Source: a virus (lineage: Duplodnaviria > Caudoviricetes). Taken from it: a stretch of DNA of 41,425 nt. Below the pieces are notes generated by a model. It made no database searches. It saw only the letters and a list, made by a program, of their open reading frames with translations, and was not told where the DNA came from. Made by a program: the position numbers and the translations under genes. The DNA lies in IMG/VR virus record IMGVR_UViG_3300027863_001337, positions 1 to 41,425 of that record, one strand, 5' to 3'. Below, one piece after another: positions 113-33,837 of this stretch. Positions within the stretch are counted from its first letter, which is position 1; each line of letters starts with the position of its first letter.

Positions 113-910
113 TTAAAATAAAGGTCGTATAGTATTTTTAAGTCGCCTAACTGCTATATCACAATATTCTTTGTTAATTTCTATACCTATACCTTGTCTG
201 CCTAACTCTTTACAGGCGACCAAAGTAGTACCACTCCCCATAAAAGGGTCAAGAACAAGGTCGTTTTTATTAGTATGATAATTAAGTATATCTTTTAATA
301 ATTTTACGGGTTTTTGAGTAGGATGTTCCGTTCTTTCATTACCTTGACATATTGGATGAACAAAAACATTATGTTTTTGCCCTAATTGGTAGTTAAAAGT
401 ATGTCCTGCTCCTGTATTTTTAGTAGCCCAAGTGAGAAATTCACAAGCAGACATATAACCTACCTTAAAAATTTGAGGAACAGGATTTGTTTTGTGCCAT
501 ACTAAAGTTTGTCTTACATGAAATCCAATACCCAACATAATCGATTCAAAAAAAGAAATTTCAGACTTAGAGTAAAAAGAAATAATCTGCCCATTCATTT
601 TTAATATACGATAACTTTCTTTTAACCATTTTTCTGCAAATTCTAATTGCTCATCTACACTATTATAAAAATCCCATTTACCAAAATCATAACAAAGTTC
701 ACTAACTTTATCTTGCCGTTTAGATACTAAGCGTCTAATTTTACGATTTTGAATTTTAGACCTATCTATTTTCCTTTCTTTTTGACTAATATTATACGGT
801 GGGTCAGTCAATACAAGGTCTATTGACTCATCTGGTATTTCTTTCATAATCTCTAGACAATCACCTAAATAAATCTTTATCCCTTCTTCTTCGTAATAAG
901 AAGTAATCAT
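113..910 (-). CDS. DNA methyltransferase, N4-C/N6-A beta class, intact
   Basis: GDCLE start, DLVLTDPPY (motif IV), HPTQKP, VLDPFMGSGTT (motif I), GIEIN. Confidence 0.93.
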   Translation of the reverse strand: MITSYYEEEGIKIYLGDCLEIMKEIPDESIDLVLTDPPYNISQKERKIDRSKIQNRKIRRLVSKRQDKVSELCYDFGKWDFYNSVDEQLEFAEKWLKESYRILKMNGQIISFYSKSEISFFESIMLGIGFHVRQTLVWHKTNPVPQIFKVGYMSACEFLTWATKNTGAGHTFNYQLGQKHNVFVHPICQGNERTEHPTQKPVKLLKDILNYHTNKNDLVLDPFMGSGTTLVACKELGRQGIGIEINKEYCDIAVRRLKNTIRPLF

Positions 911-912
911 TC

Positions 913-1203
913 CTAAAATAAACTTCCCATTGTAGCGTCTATCCTTCGTTCTGCTATTTTTACATAGTCAGGGTCTTTTTCTATTAAGATATAACTTCTT
1001 CCTGTTTTCTTACACGCCATACCTGTAGTTCCACTTCCAGCAAAGGGGTCTAAAACTATGCCACCTGTGGGAGTTTTGGTTAAGATACAAAGATATTCCA
1101 TAAGTTTAAGGGGTTTGACTGTCGGATGGTCATTACGAAATTCTTTAAAATATTTTTTATATTTTTCTGGTAGTTGATTATATTGTTCTTTTGAGATAAT
1201 CAT
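913..1203 (-). CDS. Split DNA methyltransferase fragment 3 (SAM-binding C-terminus, 96 aa)
   Basis: NDHPTVKP and VLDPFAGSGTTG, no DPPY. ATG at 1203 overlaps the TGA of the upstream HNH (ATGA), so it is preferred over the ORF-track start at 1230. Confidence 0.88.
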   Translation of the reverse strand: MIISKEQYNQLPEKYKKYFKEFRNDHPTVKPLKLMEYLCILTKTPTGGIVLDPFAGSGTTGMACKKTGRSYILIEKDPDYVKIAERRIDATMGSLF

Positions 1204-1883
1204 TTTTTTATCATTATTGTATTGTGGCATTTTTTACATAAAGTAATGCCATTATTTATATCCCATAATTCCCGACACTTTAAAGCATCATACATTGTTT
1301 GAATATTATTTTCTTTTATAATTTCCGACAATTGTTTTTTATGATGAACATTTAAGTTTCCGCCTCTTTTATCCCCACACATTTGACAGGTAAAGTTATC
1401 TCTTTTATAAACATTAAGCTTCCATTGAATATATTTTTTTGAACTTCTTATCTTATTATTTATAGTAGAAGTTCCACCTTTCCATCCATAACCATTTTCT
1501 CCTATACAAAACTTACTTTGCCACTCCCCAAAACATTTTCTTGAACAAAAATTTCTTTTTGTCTTTTTAATCTGTGATATTTTTTTTCTAAATTCTCTGC
1601 CACACCAATCGCATTGCACAATCTTGGTATTTTTTTGTGTATTATACCGATGATAACAATCAGAAGAACAAAAATTATGTTTTCTTATTCTACTATTCCG
1701 AATTCTAAATACCTTACCACAATAATCACATTTTACTTCTGAACTTTTATGCTGTGTATTCCACTTATGTTGACAAGATAAACTACAAAATTTACGCTTA
1801 TAATAAGAGTTAATACTTTCATTTTTGCGTTTGATAATTTCTGACCCACAGTATTCACAATATTTTTTCCTATATATCTTCAT
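1200..1883 (-). CDS. HNH homing endonuclease (gene-splitting element B)
   Basis: Three CxxCG...FCSxxC repeats, WKGG, RDNFTCQMCG...VHH...NGITLCKKCH. Confidence 0.9.
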   Translation of the reverse strand: MKIYRKKYCEYCGSEIIKRKNESINSYYKRKFCSLSCQHKWNTQHKSSEVKCDYCGKVFRIRNSRIRKHNFCSSDCYHRYNTQKNTKIVQCDWCGREFRKKISQIKKTKRNFCSRKCFGEWQSKFCIGENGYGWKGGTSTINNKIRSSKKYIQWKLNVYKRDNFTCQMCGDKRGGNLNVHHKKQLSEIIKENNIQTMYDALKCRELWDINNGITLCKKCHNTIMIKK

Positions 1884-1889
1884 ACAATG

Positions 1890-1918
1890 ATTATACTATA
1901 CTTATTTAGCAAAATCAA
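1890..1918 (-). promoter_or_regulatory. Sigma70-type promoter for HNH 1200-1883, probably leaderless
   Basis: TTGATT(1918-1913)-N17-TATAAT(1895-1890), 6 nt before the ATG at 1883; no SD. Confidence 0.65.
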
Positions 1919-2783
1919 GTATTTTCTTTATTTCCTCAACTATTTCTTGTGGAGTTTCGCTTCTTAAAATATATCCCTCTAAACCTTGCGAACGCTCTTT
2001 TCTACTTGCCTTCGCTACATAGAAAAAGCGATTATTGTTTATGTTCTGCTCTATATCGTTTGTGATATTCGTTCCAGTGTTCTCTATTTGCTTCACGCCA
2101 TTTTTTAAGTTCTGCTCTTGCACAATCCTTACAATATCCTCCAAAAGTTCCAGCAGTTCGTTTCCAAAAATTATCAAGTGTTTTATATTGTCCACATTTC
2201 TGGCATTTTCGGTATTCCACTCCTTCAATAATTTTATAATCTGCTCGCAATTTTCCGTGAAGTAATCTATGCTCGTGGCGAGAAAGACATTGTAAGTTTT
2301 CAATTCTATCATCTGTTGTATCAAGGTTGATATGATGGATTTCATATCCTTTTGGAAGTTTTCCATTTTGCTTTTCCCAAATATAAACTGCTCTACGCTT
2401 TGAGTATATTTTTCTGCTTCCTTTATCACGCCATTTAACATACCACCGATTTTCTGATTTTCTAAAATATTCCCACATATTGTCTCCTTTAAATAAATTA
2501 CTCTATCTGTATTATACATAGAAAAATCTAATAAGTCTACCTTTATATTTTTCACAAAGCGAGAAGCACCACCTGTATCGCCATAACCTGGGTCGCCCTT
2601 TTGATAATTATTTCCACACATATTTAACATAGACCCTTTATTACCAATTCTGCCACCAGTTGATTTACTTATTCCACTCTGTTCGTCTAACATATAACAC
2701 GGACACCCTGGATCGTGTTTTAATTCAAATAAATCCTGTAATTCTTTTGGCATTTTTTCAAAAATTTCTTTATCAATCTTCAT
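1902..2783 (-). CDS. Split DNA methyltransferase fragment 2 (293 aa) carrying an in-frame 177-codon insertion
   Basis: CPCYMLDEQSG, GDTGGASRF and FFYVAKASRKER are typical of this phage MTase family. ATG at 2783 overlaps the end of HNH 2773-3357. Confidence 0.82.
   Translation of the reverse strand: MKIDKEIFEKMPKELQDLFELKHDPGCPCYMLDEQSGISKSTGGRIGNKGSMLNMCGNNYQKGDPGYGDTGGASRFVKNIKVDLLDFSMYNTDRVIYLKETICGNILENQKIGGMLNGVIKEAEKYTQSVEQFIFGKSKMENFQKDMKSIISTLIQQMIELKTYNVFLATSIDYFTENCEQIIKLLKEWNTENARNVDNIKHLIIFGNELLELLEDIVRIVQEQNLKNGVKQIENTGTNITNDIEQNINNNRFFYVAKASRKERSQGLEGYILRSETPQEIVEEIKKILDFAK
2032..2478 (-). CDS. HNH endonuclease nested out of frame inside MTase fragment 2
   Basis: EIHHINLDTTDDRIENLQCLSRHEH plus C-terminal CQKC...YCKDC; SD AAGGAG before the ATG. 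Confidence 0.88.
   Translation of the reverse strand: MWEYFRKSENRWYVKWRDKGSRKIYSKRRAVYIWEKQNGKLPKGYEIHHINLDTTDDRIENLQCLSRHEHRLLHGKLRADYKIIEGVEYRKCQKCGQYKTLDNFWKRTAGTFGGYCKDCARAELKKWREANREHWNEYHKRYRAEHKQ
2511..2539 (-). promoter_or_regulatory. Internal promoter for HNH 2032-2478
   Basis: TAGACT(2539-2534)-N17-TATAAT(2516-2511), inside the insertion. Confidence 0.55.
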
Positions 2784-3357
2784 ATTTTTTTCCGTGAATT
2801 TTATAATGGCATTTTTTACATAAAGTAATTCCATTGTCTATATTCCAAAGTGCTTCACAATTTCTGGCATCATCTAATGTTTTAATATTATAATCCTTTA
2901 TCAATTTTGCTAATCCTATTTTATGATGAACTTCTAAATTTTTAGTGCTTTTACATATCTGACACTCATAATTATCTCTTTTCAATACTGATTTAATCCA
3001 TTTTAAATTTTCAGCACAAGTTCTAATAGCAAGTTGTAATTTAGATATTCCCCCTTTCCAATTGTAATGATTTACTCCTCTTATTTTTAACCCTCTTATT
3101 TGTGCTACCTCTGAATGTTTTTGATAAAATAATTTAACACTTTTAGCTCTCTTTTGTTTTTCTTCTAATGTATTTTTATGTCCTTTTTTTATTAATCCTT
3201 TTTGTCTACCAAGTTTTAGATTTGGTGATGGTTGTCTTCTTTTATACAATTCCGACCGACATTCAGCACAGCAAAACTCTCTTCCTTCTTTAAATTCAGA
3301 TGGTCTTCTATAAAGTGGTTTCCCGCATATTGAACATTTTGTATTAGGTGTTCTCAT
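2773..3357 (-). CDS. HNH homing endonuclease (gene-splitting element A)
   Basis: CSICG...FCCAEC, WKGG, RDNYECQIC...EVHH...NGITLCKKCH; C-terminal half clearly paralogous to 1200-1883. Confidence 0.9.
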   Translation of the reverse strand: MRTPNTKCSICGKPLYRRPSEFKEGREFCCAECRSELYKRRQPSPNLKLGRQKGLIKKGHKNTLEEKQKRAKSVKLFYQKHSEVAQIRGLKIRGVNHYNWKGGISKLQLAIRTCAENLKWIKSVLKRDNYECQICKSTKNLEVHHKIGLAKLIKDYNIKTLDDARNCEALWNIDNGITLCKKCHYKIHGKKYED

Positions 3358-5848
3358 ATAACCAATTCATTAACTTTTTCTTTTGTTCTTCTGTTATACC
3401 ACTTTTTAATTTATAATCGCAATCACAAGAAATCACCAGATTAGCGGGAAAACGCCCTTGATTTGTATAATAATTTGTATCACTACCCCTATCTGGTTCA
3501 CCACCCGCAAAAGTTCCTTTAGGTGCGTGATGTGCTTGGATTTTTTCAATCCCTATTCTTGCTTCGTTAATGTTTAACCCTGCCACTCCCCATTTCAAAG
3601 CATTATTAACAAAATTTTTATCATTTGGTTTTATTGCCCATATAATCGGCTCAAATGCTGGCTTTAAAGCAGTTCCGTATCCAATCCATAAGTTCGCTTG
3701 TTCATTTCTAAAAGGTGGTTTTCTTCTCATTTCCTCGCCAGTATCTCTATAAACCCATTTATTATCTTTTCTTTCACATAACTCTTGTTCAAATTGTAAC
3801 GCTATATTTAGAGATTTCGGAAAGCCACTATTGCCTGTAATAAAAATTTTGCCGTTTCTTCTGGCTACAAAAGCACCCGTCGGAACTTCTACACACCATA
3901 CATTCCCTTTATATTCAATTTCTTCAATTTTTGCTCTTGTGCTTCGTATAGTTTGTGTTCTTTGTTGTTTTGAAATAATATAAGATTCTCTATTCTGTTG
4001 TCTTGAGAATTGTGATTGATATGATGAACCACTTCCGTTCTTAATAATGGTCTGCCCAATTTTTGTGCTATTATAAGCCGATGTTCCATAACATAACCAT
4101 CTTTCCGAGCCATAATTGAAAATTCTTTTGGACATCTGACATATTTTATTGGCAAATAATTCCCGTGTTTTCTGAAATAGGTTACTCCACCTTTCCAAGA
4201 CGGGTTGTTTGCCCCAGTCATTTTTTGGCGATAACTTTCTAAACTCTTTTCTGTCCAATTTTTTCTGCCTAAATATCCTATCTTCTTTAACCAATCTTTT
4301 GCTTTTCCCGCACAATGTCTTGAACAATAATGGTTGTTGCTCTTTTTTATCCAAGCCAAAGGAAGCCAAAAATCTTTGCCACAAATCGGACATTTTATTT
4401 TTTTCATCTTTCTTTCTCGTAATGGCTTCTTCTTCTTGCTTTTTTGTATTGCTATTTTGAGACACTCTTTTGAGCAAATCTGATTTCTTAATGCCTGTGT
4501 GTGATTGAAAGTCATAAATGGTTTCTGGCAAATCTTGCAAACTTTCCAATATGGGTATATTTTCTTCTGGTTGAAGTGTCTCTGCCCTTTGAAATATAAA
4601 TTTTCCTTCTCGTTCAATAAGGATACGATGGTTTCTGGAGACAATTTGGTCTGTAAAATCTGATTTAATTCTGTAAGCGGGATATTCGTTTTCATACAAA
4701 AATTTTCTTGTTGGTTTGTGAAACTCAAAATTATCATTATTTACATTATAACATAATACAGGATACTTATCAATGTCTTTATGGTAATGTTCCCACCCGT
4801 TAATAGTAAGTATTTCAGTATCTTCTGACAAACAACCATAGACCCACATTAGCGTATCTTTTATTACAAACCCCGCATCCTCTAATCCACAAGCCAATCT
4901 ATGAAATGTTCTTGTTCCACCAAAACATAAAAGAGTTGCACCGGGCTTGGCTACCCGTAAGCATTCTTTTGCCCATTGATAATTAAAATTTTCTACTAAT
5001 AAGTTGGGGATTGTTTTCTGCTTTTTGATGGCAAACAACGCACAAAGTAATGAGGTTAGATAAGGAATTTTCTCGTGTCTCTCTATATTTTCTGATATGA
5101 TGACACTGAATTTCTTTTCTTTGACATTTTTTTCCGCATAATTGACAAGTGTAATTATCTCGTTTATAGACAATTTTTCTGATTTGTTCCCAGTCACTTC
5201 CTCTAAAGCATCGTTTATTTTGAGACCTTCCATCAATGTAAGATGGATTATTCTTTCCTTGCATTTTTTTACTTTTATCTTTCTCATAACACCGCCGAGA
5301 GCAGAATTTTTGATTTCTCTTTTTAGCAATGAAATCGGTATTACAAACAATACATTTTCTTTGTCTCCATTCGGGAATAGGTCGTTTTTTATAAGGTTTC
5401 CGCACCACTCTTTTAACAATTCCAGCAGTTCTTGCTTTGTAATGACAATCGCTTGAGCAAAATCTCTTTTTAGACGATTTTGTAACTTCAAAAGACTTTT
5501 TACATAACTCACATCTTCTAACTTCTCTTCTTTTGCTACTAATTCCTTTGTATTGACACTCCCTTGAACAATAAATTCCTCTTCCCCAACGGCTTCTGGA
5601 TGGATTGGCATAAAAAACTTTTCCGCAAAATTTACAAAGTCTTTGTTCAACCATATCAATTTCATTATATCATTAATACTATCCCAAGTTAAGCCCATAA
5701 AACCAGAACTACTATCGTTAGTCAGAAAATATGGAGGGTCAGTTATAATAGTATCAATACAATTATCTGGAATATTCTTCATTACCTCTATGCAGTCCCC
5801 ATTTATCACTTTATTAACAAAATCATCTGGATATTTCATTTTACCCAC
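3344..5848 (-). CDS. Split DNA methyltransferase fragment 1 (catalytic DPPY) with an intein and a further in-frame insertion
   Basis: GDCIEVM, IITDPPY, FMGLTWD, WAKECLRVAKPGA, FGGTRTFHR, MWVYG|SGFPKS, GTALKPAFEPI, GRFPANL; lacks the FxGxG motif, which is in 913-1203. Confidence 0.9.
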   Translation of the reverse strand: MGKMKYPDDFVNKVINGDCIEVMKNIPDNCIDTIITDPPYFLTNDSSSGFMGLTWDSINDIMKLIWLNKDFVNFAEKFFMPIHPEAVGEEEFIVQGSVNTKELVAKEEKLEDVSYVKSLLKLQNRLKRDFAQAIVITKQELLELLKEWCGNLIKNDLFPNGDKENVLFVIPISLLKREIKNSALGGVMRKIKVKKCKERIIHLTLMEGLKINDALEEVTGNKSEKLSINEIITLVNYAEKNVKEKKFSVIISENIERHEKIPYLTSLLCALFAIKKQKTIPNLLVENFNYQWAKECLRVAKPGATLLCFGGTRTFHRLACGLEDAGFVIKDTLMWVYGCLSEDTEILTINGWEHYHKDIDKYPVLCYNVNNDNFEFHKPTRKFLYENEYPAYRIKSDFTDQIVSRNHRILIEREGKFIFQRAETLQPEENIPILESLQDLPETIYDFQSHTGIKKSDLLKRVSQNSNTKKQEEEAITRKKDEKNKMSDLWQRFLASFGLDKKEQQPLLFKTLCGKSKRLVKEDRIFRQKKLDRKEFRKLSPKNDWGKQPVLERWSNLFQKTRELFANKICQMSKRIFNYGSERWLCYGTSAYNSTKIGQTIIKNGSGSSYQSQFSRQQNRESYIISKQQRTQTIRSTRAKIEEIEYKGNVWCVEVPTGAFVARRNGKIFITGNSGFPKSLNIALQFEQELCERKDNKWVYRDTGEEMRRKPPFRNEQANLWIGYGTALKPAFEPIIWAIKPNDKNFVNNALKWGVAGLNINEARIGIEKIQAHHAPKGTFAGGEPDRGSDTNYYTNQGRFPANLVISCDCDYKLKSGITEEQKKKLMNWLYENT
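3889..4737 (-). CDS. HNH endonuclease nested out of frame inside the intein
   Basis: CKICQ...CSKEC, CPICG...YCSRHC, GANNPSWKGG, YVMEHRL...VVHHINHNSQDNRIENL. Confidence 0.88.
   Translation of the reverse strand: MIILSFTNQQENFCMKTNIPLTELNQILQTKLSPETIVSLLNEKENLYFKGQRHFNQKKIYPYWKVCKICQKPFMTFNHTQALRNQICSKECLKIAIQKSKKKKPLRERKMKKIKCPICGKDFWLPLAWIKKSNNHYCSRHCAGKAKDWLKKIGYLGRKNWTEKSLESYRQKMTGANNPSWKGGVTYFRKHGNYLPIKYVRCPKEFSIMARKDGYVMEHRLIIAQKLGRPLLRTEVVHHINHNSQDNRIENLILFQNNKEHKLYEAQEQKLKKLNIKGMYGV
4745..4773 (-). promoter_or_regulatory. Promoter for the intein-nested HNH, probably leaderless
   Basis: TTGATA(4773-4768)-N17-TATAAT(4750-4745) with extended TG, 7 nt before the ATG at 4737. Confidence 0.68.
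4983..5654 (-). CDS. HNH endonuclease nested out of frame inside MTase fragment 1
   Basis: Three CxxC...CSxxC repeats, GKNNPSYIDG, RDNYTCQLCG...CHHI...NLITLCVVCH. Confidence 0.88.
   Translation of the reverse strand: MVEQRLCKFCGKVFYANPSRSRWGRGIYCSRECQYKGISSKRREVRRCELCKKSFEVTKSSKKRFCSSDCHYKARTAGIVKRVVRKPYKKRPIPEWRQRKCIVCNTDFIAKKRNQKFCSRRCYEKDKSKKMQGKNNPSYIDGRSQNKRCFRGSDWEQIRKIVYKRDNYTCQLCGKKCQRKEIQCHHIRKYRETRENSLSNLITLCVVCHQKAENNPQLISRKF
5664..5692 (-). promoter_or_regulatory. Promoter for HNH 4983-5654
   Basis: TTAACT(5692-5687)-N17-TATAAT(5669-5664) with extended TG, 9 nt before the ATG. Confidence 0.55.
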
Positions 5849-5996: not shown

Positions 5997-6470
5997 TCAA
6001 TATACTTTTAACACCCAACTTAAAAAGTTATTTTCTTCTTTTGTGAAAATCAAATAAAAATATCTGCCATACCACCTCTTATCCTGAAGGATATGCATTC
6101 TCTTTAAACTAAATCCTCTTTGTTTTAAAGTCTCTAATCTGTTAGGGACTACCATGCTGTTTAAAAACTTAATACTTCCTAAAAAAGCGATTCCTTTCCT
6201 TGCTATTCTGCTTGCTTTTTCTAAAAACTTCCAACCTAACTGAAAAGGTGGATTTCCTACCACCCAGTCAACTTCTAAGTTCCACTCAAAGAAGTCTCTA
6301 CCTTCTTCTATCTCGCATTCGTATTTTTCCTTTTGTTTTATGTTGTTATACCATACCTTGTTTAACCCGCTACCTGCATCCAAAACTGAATCGTTTTCTC
6401 CTATTGGAGTTATTGCCAATAAATCTTTTACAGTCTCTTCTCTTGTATAGTAAAACTCTCTTGGTCTCAT
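5997..6470 (-). CDS. Small N6-adenine DNA methyltransferase-like protein
   Basis: FYYT, VLDAGSG (motif I) followed by VVGNPPF (motif IV). Confidence 0.8.
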   Translation of the reverse strand: MRPREFYYTREETVKDLLAITPIGENDSVLDAGSGLNKVWYNNIKQKEKYECEIEEGRDFFEWNLEVDWVVGNPPFQLGWKFLEKASRIARKGIAFLGSIKFLNSMVVPNRLETLKQRGFSLKRMHILQDKRWYGRYFYLIFTKEENNFLSWVLKVY

Positions 6471-6545
6471 AAAAAATAGGGCAAGGAGACCGCCTGATTT
6501 ATCTGGCGGAGGAATTGCCCATCCTCCTTTCTTAAAAAATTTCTC

Positions 6546-6574
6546 TTGATATTTTCAAATAAATGAATTATAAT
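6546..6574 (+). promoter_or_regulatory. tnpB promoter, probably leaderless
   Basis: TTGATA-N17-TATAAT, 6 nt before ATG 6581; no SD. Confidence 0.7.
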
Positions 6575-6580
6575 TAAACT

Positions 6581-7702
6581 ATGAAACTTACTTTGCAGAT
6601 AAAACTTTTGCCTGATGATACACAGTCTAAAAGCCTTATAGAAACTATTAAGGAATGTAATAAAGTTTGTAATATCATTTCTGATATTGCCTGGCAAAAT
6701 AAAACCTTTAATCAATTTAAACTTCATAATCTTGTTTATCATTCCATAAAAAAATCTTCTAAACTTTCTGCTCAAGCTCTTGTTAGATGTATTAGCAAGG
6801 TCGCTGATAGTTATAAACTTGATAAGAAAAAGAAACGAATTTTTAATCCTCTTGGAGCCATTACTTATGATGCCCGAATTCTTTCTTATAACATTGAAAA
6901 ACGAATTGTTTCTATTTGGTCTATTGATGGGAGATTGAAAATCCCTTTTATCTGCCATAATCCCAAATATCTTCCTTATATTAAAGGTGAAGCAGACCTT
7001 GTTTATAAGAAAGATAAATTTTATCTTTTTCAGACTGTAGAAGTTTCTGAAGAAGATGTTAAAGATGTTGAAGAATTTATAGGTGTAGATTTTGGTATAA
7101 CTGACATTGCCACACTGTCTGATGGAACAAAGTTTAGTTCTGAACAACTTAATAAGATTAGAGATAAATACTTTAAAGTGCGACGCTCTGTTCAACGCAA
7201 AGGCACGAAAGGAAGCAGAAAGCTTCTGAAACGGCTTAAAGGCAGAGAACAGAGATTTGCCACTATTACCAATCATACAATTAGCAAACGCATCGTAGAA
7301 AAAGCTAAAGCTGAAGGTAAAGGAATTGCTATTGAGGATTTGACCCACATTAGAGAAAGAACTACTGTAAGAAAGGCACAGAGGCGGAAACATCACTCTT
7401 GGGCTTTTAGGCAACTCCGTTTCTTTCTTGAATATAAGGCAAGGCTTGCTGGTATTCCTCTCGTTGTTGTTGACCCTAATTACACTTCTCAGATTTGTAG
7501 TGTATGTAAGACAATTGGTAATAGAAATGGCAAGCACTTTAGTTGTCCAAGCTGTGGCAATATTATTGATGCCGATGTTAATGCGGCTAAGAATATTGCC
7601 CAGTTGGGGGCTCTTTGTGGTAAACAGCCCCGAAAGGATGTGAATATGTTGAATTTTGTTTCGCATATTCCTCCTAAAGCTGACTGCTTTAGCTGTCAGT
7701 AG
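6581..7702 (+). CDS. tnpB: RNA-guided endonuclease TnpB
   Basis: RuvC GVDFG, IAIEDL, DADVNAAKNI; zinc finger CSVC...CPSC. Confidence 0.93.
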   Translation: MKLTLQIKLLPDDTQSKSLIETIKECNKVCNIISDIAWQNKTFNQFKLHNLVYHSIKKSSKLSAQALVRCISKVADSYKLDKKKKRIFNPLGAITYDARILSYNIEKRIVSIWSIDGRLKIPFICHNPKYLPYIKGEADLVYKKDKFYLFQTVEVSEEDVKDVEEFIGVDFGITDIATLSDGTKFSSEQLNKIRDKYFKVRRSVQRKGTKGSRKLLKRLKGREQRFATITNHTISKRIVEKAKAEGKGIAIEDLTHIRERTTVRKAQRRKHHSWAFRQLRFFLEYKARLAGIPLVVVDPNYTSQICSVCKTIGNRNGKHFSCPSCGNIIDADVNAAKNIAQLGALCGKQPRKDVNMLNFVSHIPPKADCFSCQ

Positions 7703-13746: not shown

Positions 13747-14340
13747 TCATATCTCCTTTACGATTTTTTTAATCTCATCAAAACAATTATTCCATCCTCT
13801 CCGCATTAAATCTCCGCTTACTCTATCAAGAGAAAATCCCATTTCGTTTTGAATAAGTTTGGCAAGTTTCTTCCAATCCTGCTTTGTTAAAGGAATAAAA
13901 ATATCTTCGGGATATGGATTGTTCGATAATTTTTCTAACAACTTCTTCTTCCATTCCTCCTTTTGAATCTCGGCTTTGACTATAGCTCTGACTACCCAAA
14001 CCAATGCTAAAAATACAGCATCTTTATCTCGTTCGTCTTTTGGTAATTTATTATAAGATACCAAATCCGGATGTGTTTTCAATACAGGGTCTCGCTTTTT
14101 TCCATACTTCCAACCCATCTTAAAATAACTTTCCATCCAAGAATTATGAGCTTCTTCTGGTGTTGGCAATTTTTCCATTGTTAAATACTGTCTAACAATA
14201 TCTATCATTTGCTTTCTAAATACCTCATCTCTTTCTGCCCATACTTCTGGAACTATACCTCTATTAGACCATATTGCCTCTAATCTTGTTGCCTCATAAA
14301 TAATTTCTGTTATCTTCTCTACATCCACTTCCTTCACCAT
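13747..14340 (-). CDS. RyR-domain protein
   Basis: AHNSWMESYFKMGWKYG...KTHPDLVSYNKLPKDERDKD. Confidence 0.8.
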   Translation of the reverse strand: MVKEVDVEKITEIIYEATRLEAIWSNRGIVPEVWAERDEVFRKQMIDIVRQYLTMEKLPTPEEAHNSWMESYFKMGWKYGKKRDPVLKTHPDLVSYNKLPKDERDKDAVFLALVWVVRAIVKAEIQKEEWKKKLLEKLSNNPYPEDIFIPLTKQDWKKLAKLIQNEMGFSLDRVSGDLMRRGWNNCFDEIKKIVKEI

Positions 14341-15499: not shown

Positions 15500-15698
15500 T
15501 TGTTTTCCTCCCTTTTATTAATTGAAAATTTTTTACTTTTTCAAGCGGTATATTCACATCCTCGAAATAAAATTTACCTTTTTTATATTTTATATCACTC
15601 TGCTCTAATAATTCCTGATGACGCCAACAAAAATGGCTAAACTTATTATAAGATGAAAGTATAGTATTACATCCCGGAAATGCACATTTCTTTTTCAT
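15492..15698 (-). CDS. Hypothetical Cys/His protein
   Basis: CAFPGC...FCWRH; ATGA overlap with the upstream gene. Confidence 0.6.
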   Translation of the reverse strand: MKKKCAFPGCNTILSSYNKFSHFCWRHQELLEQSDIKYKKGKFYFEDVNIPLEKVKNFQLIKGRKTNV

Positions 15699-32661: not shown

Positions 32662-32690
32662 TTGACAAATTTCCTTTTTTAAGGTATGAT
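32662..32690 (+). promoter_or_regulatory. tnpB promoter, probably leaderless
   Basis: TTGACA-N17-TATGAT, 7 nt before ATG 32698. Confidence 0.7.
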
Positions 32691-32697
32691 AATAAAT

Positions 32698-33837
32698 ATG
32701 GAAAAAACCCTTAAATACAGAATATATCCGACAAGTAAACAACGAAGACTTTTGCAGGAACAGTTGAATGAGTGCCGTTGGCTTTATAACCATCTTCTTG
32801 AGCAAAGAAGAAATGCTTGGGAACAGGATAAAAAATCCATTGGTTATTTTGCTCAATGTAAATCGCTTGTTGCTTTGAAAAAAGAAAGACCGTCTCTTAA
32901 CAATGTCTATTCTCAAGTCCTTCAAGATGTTGCAGACAGAGTTGATAAGGCATTCCAGAATTTCTTTCGTAGAGTTAAAGCAGGTGAGAAAAAAGTTGGT
33001 TATCCAAGATTTAAAGGATTTGACCGCTATGATAGCCTGACTTATAAACAGGCTGGATTTGGTTGGGAAGTTAAAGATAACCGTCTTAATCTTTCTAAAA
33101 TTGGCTCTATTAAAATTAAAATCCATAGACCTATTATTGGAACTCTTAAAACTTGCACTATTAGAAGGCAGTCTGGTAAATGGTATGCTTGTTTTTCTGT
33201 TGAATATCAAAATAATCCTTTGCCCAAATCTGATGAAGCAGTTGGAATAGATGTTGGATTGGAAAGTTTTGCTACTTTGTCTACTGGCGAAAAAGTTGGC
33301 AATCCTTGCTTTTTCAAAACAGACCAGAAGGCTCTTGCAAAGGCTCAAAGAAAATTGTCTAAACAAGAGAAAGGTTCTCTTGAAAGAAAAAAAGCCAAAA
33401 AGGTAGTTGCTCATATTTACGAAAGAATATCTAACAGGCGTCATAATTTTATTCATCAGGAAGCCAGAAAAATTGTTAATCGCTTTGGCATAATTTGTAT
33501 TGAAAAACTTAATGTTAAAGGTATGATGCATAATCATACAAAAATCTTTGGTAATAAACTTAATAGAGGCATTGTGAATGTTGCTTGGGGTCAATTTGCT
33601 AACGTATTGTCGCACAAAGCGGAAGAGGCTGGTCGGCAATTTGTAGCAATAGACCCAAAGGGAACAAGTCAGATATGTAGTCAATGTGGTTCTGTTGTTG
33701 AAAAAGAACTGTCTGACCGTTGGCACGATTGTCCTGTTTGTAATGCTCATCTGCATCGTGATTATAATGCTTCTTTGAACATTTTGAGACTGGGACTACA
33801 GTCTCTGGGGTTTACCCCAAGAAGCCTACGACTTTAG
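32698..33837 (+). CDS. tnpB: RNA-guided endonuclease TnpB
   Basis: KYRIYPT N-terminus, GYPRFK, GIDVG, ICIEKL, TSQICSQCG...CPVC...HRDYNAS. Confidence 0.95.
   Translation: MEKTLKYRIYPTSKQRRLLQEQLNECRWLYNHLLEQRRNAWEQDKKSIGYFAQCKSLVALKKERPSLNNVYSQVLQDVADRVDKAFQNFFRRVKAGEKKVGYPRFKGFDRYDSLTYKQAGFGWEVKDNRLNLSKIGSIKIKIHRPIIGTLKTCTIRRQSGKWYACFSVEYQNNPLPKSDEAVGIDVGLESFATLSTGEKVGNPCFFKTDQKALAKAQRKLSKQEKGSLERKKAKKVVAHIYERISNRRHNFIHQEARKIVNRFGIICIEKLNVKGMMHNHTKIFGNKLNRGIVNVAWGQFANVLSHKAEEAGRQFVAIDPKGTSQICSQCGSVVEKELSDRWHDCPVCNAHLHRDYNASLNILRLGLQSLGFTPRSLRL

Follow-up and report, generated by a model that had tools for sequence, protein, structure and literature searches.

In Aeromonas phage Aeh1, mobE splits nrdA, and the resulting tails are essential for activity but not for the heterodimer, acting on higher-order assembly (Crona et al., PMC3045599). 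MobA splits the T4-type topoisomerase gene 39/60 and adds conserved C-terminal and N-terminal extensions (CTE and NTE; bioRxiv 10.1101/2022.08.31.505936). Fractured genes consist of an N-part, a free-standing and often Vsr-like nuclease and a C-part, mostly with split inteins; one intein-less SbcD-like locus has extra ends of 25 and 9 residues (Dassa et al., PMC2677866). In ShiLan-type loci, HNH genes are inserted out of frame in phage methylases (Arsenault et al., PMC11855218). Here we describe a methyltransferase gene cut into three by two nuclease cassettes in a stretch of 41,425 nucleotides (nt), positions 1 to 41,425 of IMG/VR virus record IMGVR_UViG_3300027863_001337 (Caudoviricetes), called the window below. 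Each cassette gives the upstream host piece a C-terminal peptide (the tail) and the downstream piece an N-terminal one (the head). We put at roughly 0.6 the probability that tail and head form a clip that holds the split methyltransferase together, active without splicing.

A single beta-class N6/N4 methyltransferase (PF01555) is encoded on the minus strand, from 5848 to 913, by three open reading frames (ORFs). Its motifs are parted: DPPY is on piece 1, while HPTVKP and DPFAGSG, which binds S-adenosylmethionine (SAM), are on piece 3. The pieces, tags and split-site nucleases are as follows (lengths in amino acids, aa).

3344–5848, minus strand: methyltransferase piece 1, 834 aa; PF01555 with catalytic DPPY and two in-frame insertions; its C-terminus is tail 1
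3347–3415, minus strand: tail 1, 23 aa from Tyr, net charge +2; stop at 3344–3346
2773–3357, minus strand: site-1 HNH endonuclease, 194 aa
1902–2783, minus strand: methyltransferase piece 2, 293 aa; begins with head 1, ends with tail 2 and has an overprinted HNH insert in its variable region
2727–2783, minus strand: head 1, 19 aa, net charge −1
1905–1973, minus strand: tail 2, 23 aa, net charge −1; stop at 1902–1904
1890–1918, minus strand: predicted sigma-70-like promoter; −35 box in the end of tail 2, −10 box six nt before the HNH ATG
1200–1883, minus strand: site-2 HNH endonuclease, 227 aa
913–1203, minus strand: methyltransferase piece 3, 96 aa; head 2, HPTVKP and the SAM-binding DPFAGSG
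1147–1203, minus strand: head 2, 19 aa, net charge +2

Both split sites share the order tail, stop, HNH, head, and both lie in variable loops of the methyltransferase. At site 1, the HNH start overlaps the end of tail 1 by 14 nt and the ATG of head 1 overlaps the end of the HNH gene by 11 nt. At site 2, an 18-nt spacer separates the tail 2 stop from the HNH gene, the end of which shares an ATGA overlap with the start of head 2. An earlier, sequence-only reading had proposed this layout as a selfish element; its coordinates, peptides and overlaps are all present, as is the 23-mer shared by the two HNH genes. The gapless alignment of the heads also stands: they are identical at 6 of 19 positions, which 10 of 100,000 shuffles equal (55 of 100,000 without the Met). 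The tails, identical at 5 of 23 positions, match weakly from the window alone (1,587 of 100,000 shuffles as good), and it is the family profiles given below that bear their kinship out. The 23-mer (at 1225 and 2807) is coding sequence for the HNH motif ITLCKKCH. In the HNH tree, the two HNHs of the window fall in separate supported clades (97/81 and 96/93), nearest to same-site HNHs of other genomes, and both clades lie in an unresolved group that also holds five untagged HNHs. With 24 of the 47 untagged loci included (distinct and motif-matching), the tree gives no single clade of site-1 and site-2 HNHs. The shared 23-mer, although real, is therefore no sign of a recent duplication.

Searches with piece 3, HNH and head patterns gathered 47 distinct tail and head pairs (25 at site 1 and 22 at site 2, the window's two included), all in this methyltransferase family. 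Comparison of site-1 with site-2 profiles (hhalign) gives probabilities of 94% for the tails and 98% for the heads, and none of 200 column shuffles reaches either score; by sequence profile, the tags of the two sites are homologous. The tail length of exactly 23 aa, claimed from the window, recurs in 25 of the 47 tails, with a range of 21–26. Of 51 methyltransferase heads for which 1 kb of upstream sequence was available, 50 have a tail, a count that includes duplicates and four copies of a fused allele. In all six tag blocks, variation is highest at the third codon position, and the ratio of non-synonymous to synonymous polymorphism (pN/pS) is 0.31–0.56 in codons picked so as to lie clear of the nuclease overlap (11–12 disjoint pairs each, uncorrected). 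A middle ORF running from head 1 to tail 2 recurs in P0097, P0114 and P0120/L173; the window is thus not alone in having a three-piece enzyme.

Different nucleases occupy the cassette (HNH, DUF559/Vsr-like, GIY-YIG-like), and the nuclease can also be deleted, with the tags staying in place. At site 1, 21 of the pairs flank an HNH gene and four have no nuclease; at site 2, 13 flank a DUF559-type nuclease and six an HNH, two have none and one is broken. The DUF559 assignment includes a Pfam match at an expectation value (E) of 1e-10 (L015), and the GIY-YIG-like nuclease, in L233, was recognised by motif. In six of the 47 alleles the nuclease has been lost by deletion and both tags are kept. Five of these six differ from the nearest nuclease-bearing allele at 21–38 of 117 nt. 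The spacers of the nuclease-less alleles are 17–68 nt long, with leftover nuclease ends where recognisable, and two of these alleles have a Shine-Dalgarno-like run ahead of the head. Of 48 loci of HNH relatives, only one has tags; the tags thus follow the host gene rather than the nuclease. An element defined by this HNH, as first proposed, has to be given up. L308 (1780–2700) carries, as cargo, a small adenine-methylase-like ORF between tail and nuclease of its site-2 cassette. The site-1 tagged methyltransferase of L138 (564–1917) also has an in-frame LAGLIDADG-like insert, identified by eye.

Both split sites correspond to length-variable loops in uninterrupted relatives, some of which are nearly identical to tagged alleles. 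Piece 3 of the window is 96% identical to the uninterrupted L001, whereas its identity to the closest of the other tagged alleles is 75%; the tagged L034 is 96% identical to the uninterrupted L035, and 68% to the nearest tagged allele. The existence of such near-identical uninterrupted alleles indicates that the cassette is mobile. The L034/L035 pair has a clean junction, at which the cassette replaces 6 nt, and places the limits of the site-1 cassette from seven codons upstream of the tail Tyr to six codons past the head Phe. On the host tree, 13 and 8 label changes are needed.

One allele, L002, has tail and head in a single reading frame, with the tail cut at residue 16. Its junction ends in GTTTATG, as in seven of 13 DUF559-type and none of six HNH-type alleles. 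A search at the scale of 5.8 billion left this single fused protein among two candidates. The shortened tail, the DUF559-like junction and the lack of any other fused protein lead us to read L002 as a secondary fusion by deletion. Tags in an uninterrupted methyltransferase had been named beforehand as counting against a re-assembly pair; L002 has them, yet its look of a secondary fusion favours that reading. AlphaFold2 predicts that the fused tail and head of L002 fold as one small domain (predicted local distance difference test 82; predicted template modelling score, pTM, 0.58). In this model the tail is strand-helix and the head strand-helix-helix-strand, and host sequence attaches at the first strand and at the last. 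Fold searches with the model gave nothing usable (best E = 0.22 in BFVD; best Z = 3.1 across the PDB), the ESM Atlas returned unnamed clusters only, and the head profile against solved structures found at best an unrelated match (E = 0.02). A complex prediction for tail 2 and head 2 (47 and 46 alignment rows) scored 0.21, at a mark of 0.32, and weighs neither way.

The head pattern also retrieves phage head-scaffolding proteins (PHROG 206), and the protein search includes one scaffold match (P0081, E = 6e-4). When head and scaffold N-terminus are compared, with 12 scaffolds gathered by whole-protein similarity and independently of the head pattern, the probability is 80% and none of 60 shuffles does as well. 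For the scaffold N-terminus the predicted elements run strand, helix, helix, strand, strand, helix, which is the order head then tail, in one contiguous chain without a nuclease, unlike the tags. A BFVD search with the scaffold model gave nothing usable (best E = 0.21). The N-terminal module of these scaffolding proteins is the probable origin of the head.

These observations fit a mechanism in which two mobile cassettes, each consisting of tail, stop, nuclease gene, start and head, have cut the methyltransferase into three genes. The cassette brings its own stop, a start for the downstream piece that overlaps the end of the nuclease gene and, at site 2, a promoter-like sequence. The nuclease would cut cassette-free alleles and spread by homing, the filled and empty pairs suggesting mobility, and the three pieces would be translated separately. 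Each tail would fold with its head into a small three-stranded domain with the cut ends side by side; the first strand of the tail would pair with the last strand of the head, making the host junctions meet like a hairpin loop. The host chain would thus enter and leave at the hairpin tip of a small split domain, and the clip would reunite the catalytic motif of piece 1 with the SAM-binding motif of piece 3. In the window, the charges of cognate tails and heads are opposite in sign, those of crossed pairs the same. Of the re-assembly pair first proposed, the evidence reaches as far as tags that are cassette-derived, conserved, paired and mobile, with a fused allele predicted as one domain; docking itself is inferred.

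Several points weigh against the docking clip. The Aeh1 halves bind without their tails (PMC3045599), so the host halves here may assemble unaided, and with an intact methyltransferase adjoining (113–910), the split enzyme need not be active. The fold model comes from one covalently fused, short-tailed allele, with unpaired rows and the pTM given above. In the comparison of tail with scaffold, only the Y-x-L strand aligns, in the expected register, and 3–16 of 60 shuffles are as good, which is not significant. Across the family, the charges of tail and head are anticorrelated at site 1 (r = −0.52, without correction for kinship) but not at site 2 (r = 0.09). The sole head of the 51 without a tail, in L194, has a frameshifted site-1 tail, and several alleles are broken just past the head. 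Tag conservation is partly DNA-level in cause, from the overlap with nuclease ends and the promoter in tail 2. The host tree is short, and its starred branches force only three and two changes.

A more ambitious version of the clip is conceivable, though we doubt it: the tags would be a self-sufficient split domain of 40 residues from the scaffold N-terminus, opened at a beta-hairpin and serving as a non-covalent intein substitute in any tolerant loop and with any nuclease, two orthogonal pairs ordering the three-piece enzyme. Searches for other hosts bear on this. Against 1.84 billion representatives, the head profile gives 64 matches: 57 methyltransferase pieces (seven sorted by eye), five multi-repeat proteins, one scaffold and P0148. 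The last, a 196-aa protein of no known family on a 681-nt contig, has a head-like N-terminus and is a possible second host. Among metagenome loci, 85 of 120 score at least 18 bits with a head profile that had been trained on these same loci; 83 are methyltransferases (by eye), one is a scaffold and one is unclear. Thirty genome loci searched for the head yield one methyltransferase and one scaffold, four viral loci with the tail pattern yield one methyltransferase tail, and cultured phages give nothing better than E = 3. These searches, made with strict patterns or 21-column profiles that would miss diverged tags, found no unrelated host gene with tags. Portability of the pair, as claimed from the window, is thus shown between two sites of one gene family, and its extension to any gene is unsupported.

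The methyltransferase fold itself might reassemble the pieces, leaving the tags to cap cut ends, aid solubility or form dimers, much as in Aeh1 NrdA, where tail deletions keep the heterodimer, lose the dimer of heterodimers and cost 2000-fold activity (PMC3045599). Since both sites are variable loops, the core interfaces are untouched. However, tail and head nearly always co-occur and are predicted to form one domain when fused, and the same tag pair in two different loops fits mutual recognition better than host-specific contacts. We regard this explanation as unlikely, while taking it seriously.

It is improbable that the tags are by-products of expression signals serving the nuclease, with the split methyltransferase inactive or dispensable. 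Such signals are plain enough: the HNH gene of site 1 starts inside tail 1, a −35 box sits in tail 2, and in many alleles 26–29 nt of head 2 are shared with the nuclease end. In addition, an intact second methyltransferase lies next door and some alleles are broken. At site 2 the −35 box falls in the last codons of the tail, and promoter scores of at least 9.5 occur in 11 of 20 nuclease-bearing alleles compared with nine of 380 random windows. The ATG lies 5–7 nt past the −10 box in nine of the 20, which suggests leaderless transcripts (in the window, of nuclease and piece 3, as predicted). At site 1, in contrast, the nuclease start overlaps the tail. By-products would hardly show amino-acid conservation in codons outside the overlaps. 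Nor would they be expected to persist in diverged nuclease-less alleles, two with the Shine-Dalgarno-like run, or in an allele fused in frame, or beside intact host motifs.

RNA or protein splicing at the split sites is unlikely. A group I or II intron was rejected: between 800 and 6000 of the window Rfam gives no match below E = 1 (two unrelated matches have E of 1.1 and 1.7), the cassettes contain 0–18 nt of non-coding DNA, and tail-head RNA pairing was not found (mean z 0.10; 0 of 46 below −2). A split intein was rejected likewise, as none of 47 tails has a Cys, the residue after the head varies and there is no Pfam intein match; on this the sequence-only reading was right. Removal of the insert from the RNA, or its bypass by ribosomes as in a T4 gene 60-like hop, would yield one protein, and we give this very little credence. 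Gene 60-type elements do pair tags with a bypass gap (bioRxiv 10.1101/2022.08.31.505936), and some relatives have a stop-containing gap of 3–8 nt after HPT. Against it speak the points just given on Rfam, non-coding DNA and RNA pairing, the dominance of synonymous variation, and the nuclease-less spacers, which vary from 17 to 68 nt and are nuclease remnants. The gap after HPT is an observation of its own: in the site-2 pieces L180, L207, L260 and L269 the frame ends right after HPT and reopens at VKP a few bases on, and 10 of the 64 proteins of the head-hit set have the same interruption. It may reflect recoding, a collapsed insertion or inactivation.

It is scarcely credible that some methyltransferases had tail and head as a small domain of their own before nucleases inserted into it, because the one protein with both in a single frame (L002) has a tail ending at residue 16 and a DUF559-like GTTTATG junction, and near-identical relatives lack both tags.

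Set beside the described systems, the docking clip is closest to Aeh1 and T4. A free-standing nuclease stands between enzyme parts, and conserved extensions are absent from uninterrupted alleles, as with MobE and MobA. As in nrdA-a/mobE/nrdA-b, an HNH splits the enzyme between active-site parts and adds new C- and N-terminal tails, the nuclease overlaps the downstream piece, and there is no splicing (PMC3045599). The sequence-only reading knew of no dedicated tags there; this was mistaken, since tails essential for activity are published for Aeh1 and MobA adds extensions too. Unlike Aeh1, with its nrdA host, single site and strongly basic and acidic tails, the present case has a methyltransferase host and one tag family at two sites, with three pieces and three nuclease types. 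As with MobA, a mobile cassette has extensions that are kept despite nuclease swap (VSR and GIY-YIG for MobA), loss or re-fusion, and genes overlap out of frame; unlike MobA, with extensions of about 44 aa, one site and ribosomal bypass, there is no bypass at the window's sites. Neither the Aeh1 nor the T4 record matches the tail and head profiles (0 of 2, with positive controls run; the T4 extensions score below 1 bit), so this is a separate family, though alike in layout and life cycle. Fractured genes share the overlap of nuclease end and downstream start, but the accessible text of PMC2677866 has no recurring tag family and no match to 'methyl'.

Five nuclease genes lie inside the split methyltransferase: two split it, and three are overprinted in another frame, leaving the host frame open. 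The remaining features of the gene are these.

4983–5654, minus strand: overprinted ShiLan-like HNH in piece 1, in another frame, host frame open
3830–4834, minus strand: probable intein in piece 1, with Cys start and Asn-Ser end by reading, and without a Pfam intein match
3889–4737, minus strand: out-of-frame HNH gene within the probable intein
2032–2478, minus strand: overprinted ShiLan-like HNH in piece 2, in another frame, host frame open

The HNHs at 4983–5654 and 2032–2478 are accounted for by ShiLan-type insertion, the host methylases being related and the host frame open across the inserts. The split sites differ: in ShiLan the host frame stays open, there are no tags and 'split' has no match in the accessible text, whereas here the stops at 3344 and 1902 close the host frame (PMC11855218). 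A sigma-70-like promoter stands just upstream of each of the HNHs at 4983–5654, 3889–4737 and 2032–2478. On the minus strand between 850 and 6000, four promoter-like sites have at least 10 of 12 matches, all just upstream of nuclease ORFs. Such sites may explain how hidden HNHs are expressed; the word 'promoter' has no match in the accessible text of PMC11855218.

Directly downstream of the split gene is an intact beta-class methyltransferase (113–910, minus strand), and directly upstream a small adenine-methylase-like ORF (5997–6470, minus strand). The window also encodes DNA polymerase A, fused to a uracil-DNA-glycosylase-like domain (20072–22360, minus strand), a DnaB-like helicase and a primase. 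Two TnpB/IS605-type ORFs are on the plus strand (6581–7702 and 32686–33837); opposite the first, a frame of 399 aa is open at 6467–7666. A metallophosphoesterase is fused to an SMC-like ATPase in 943 aa (15695–18526, minus strand), and an ORF matches the RyR domain (13747–14340, minus strand; E = 1.6e-10).

The principle is already known from the Aeh1 MobE/NrdA tails, the T4 MobA extensions and the SbcD-like locus. New are one tag family at two sites, a three-piece enzyme, a promoter in a tail and a candidate for where the head came from. No description of the tag family was found in the literature searched, although supplements to the MobA preprint and to PMC2677866 may list further cases. 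Each of the tail-bearing cassettes in the literature belongs to a single site of a single gene; here two sites of one enzyme are served, and the family displays a full life cycle of invasion, nuclease swap, nuclease loss and re-fusion. If the tags dock autonomously, they would add to introns and inteins a third way for selfish nucleases to break genes without harm, one whose origin can be traced, and would provide very small heterodimer tags of natural origin. Many annotated phage methyltransferase 'fragments' may be working subunits.

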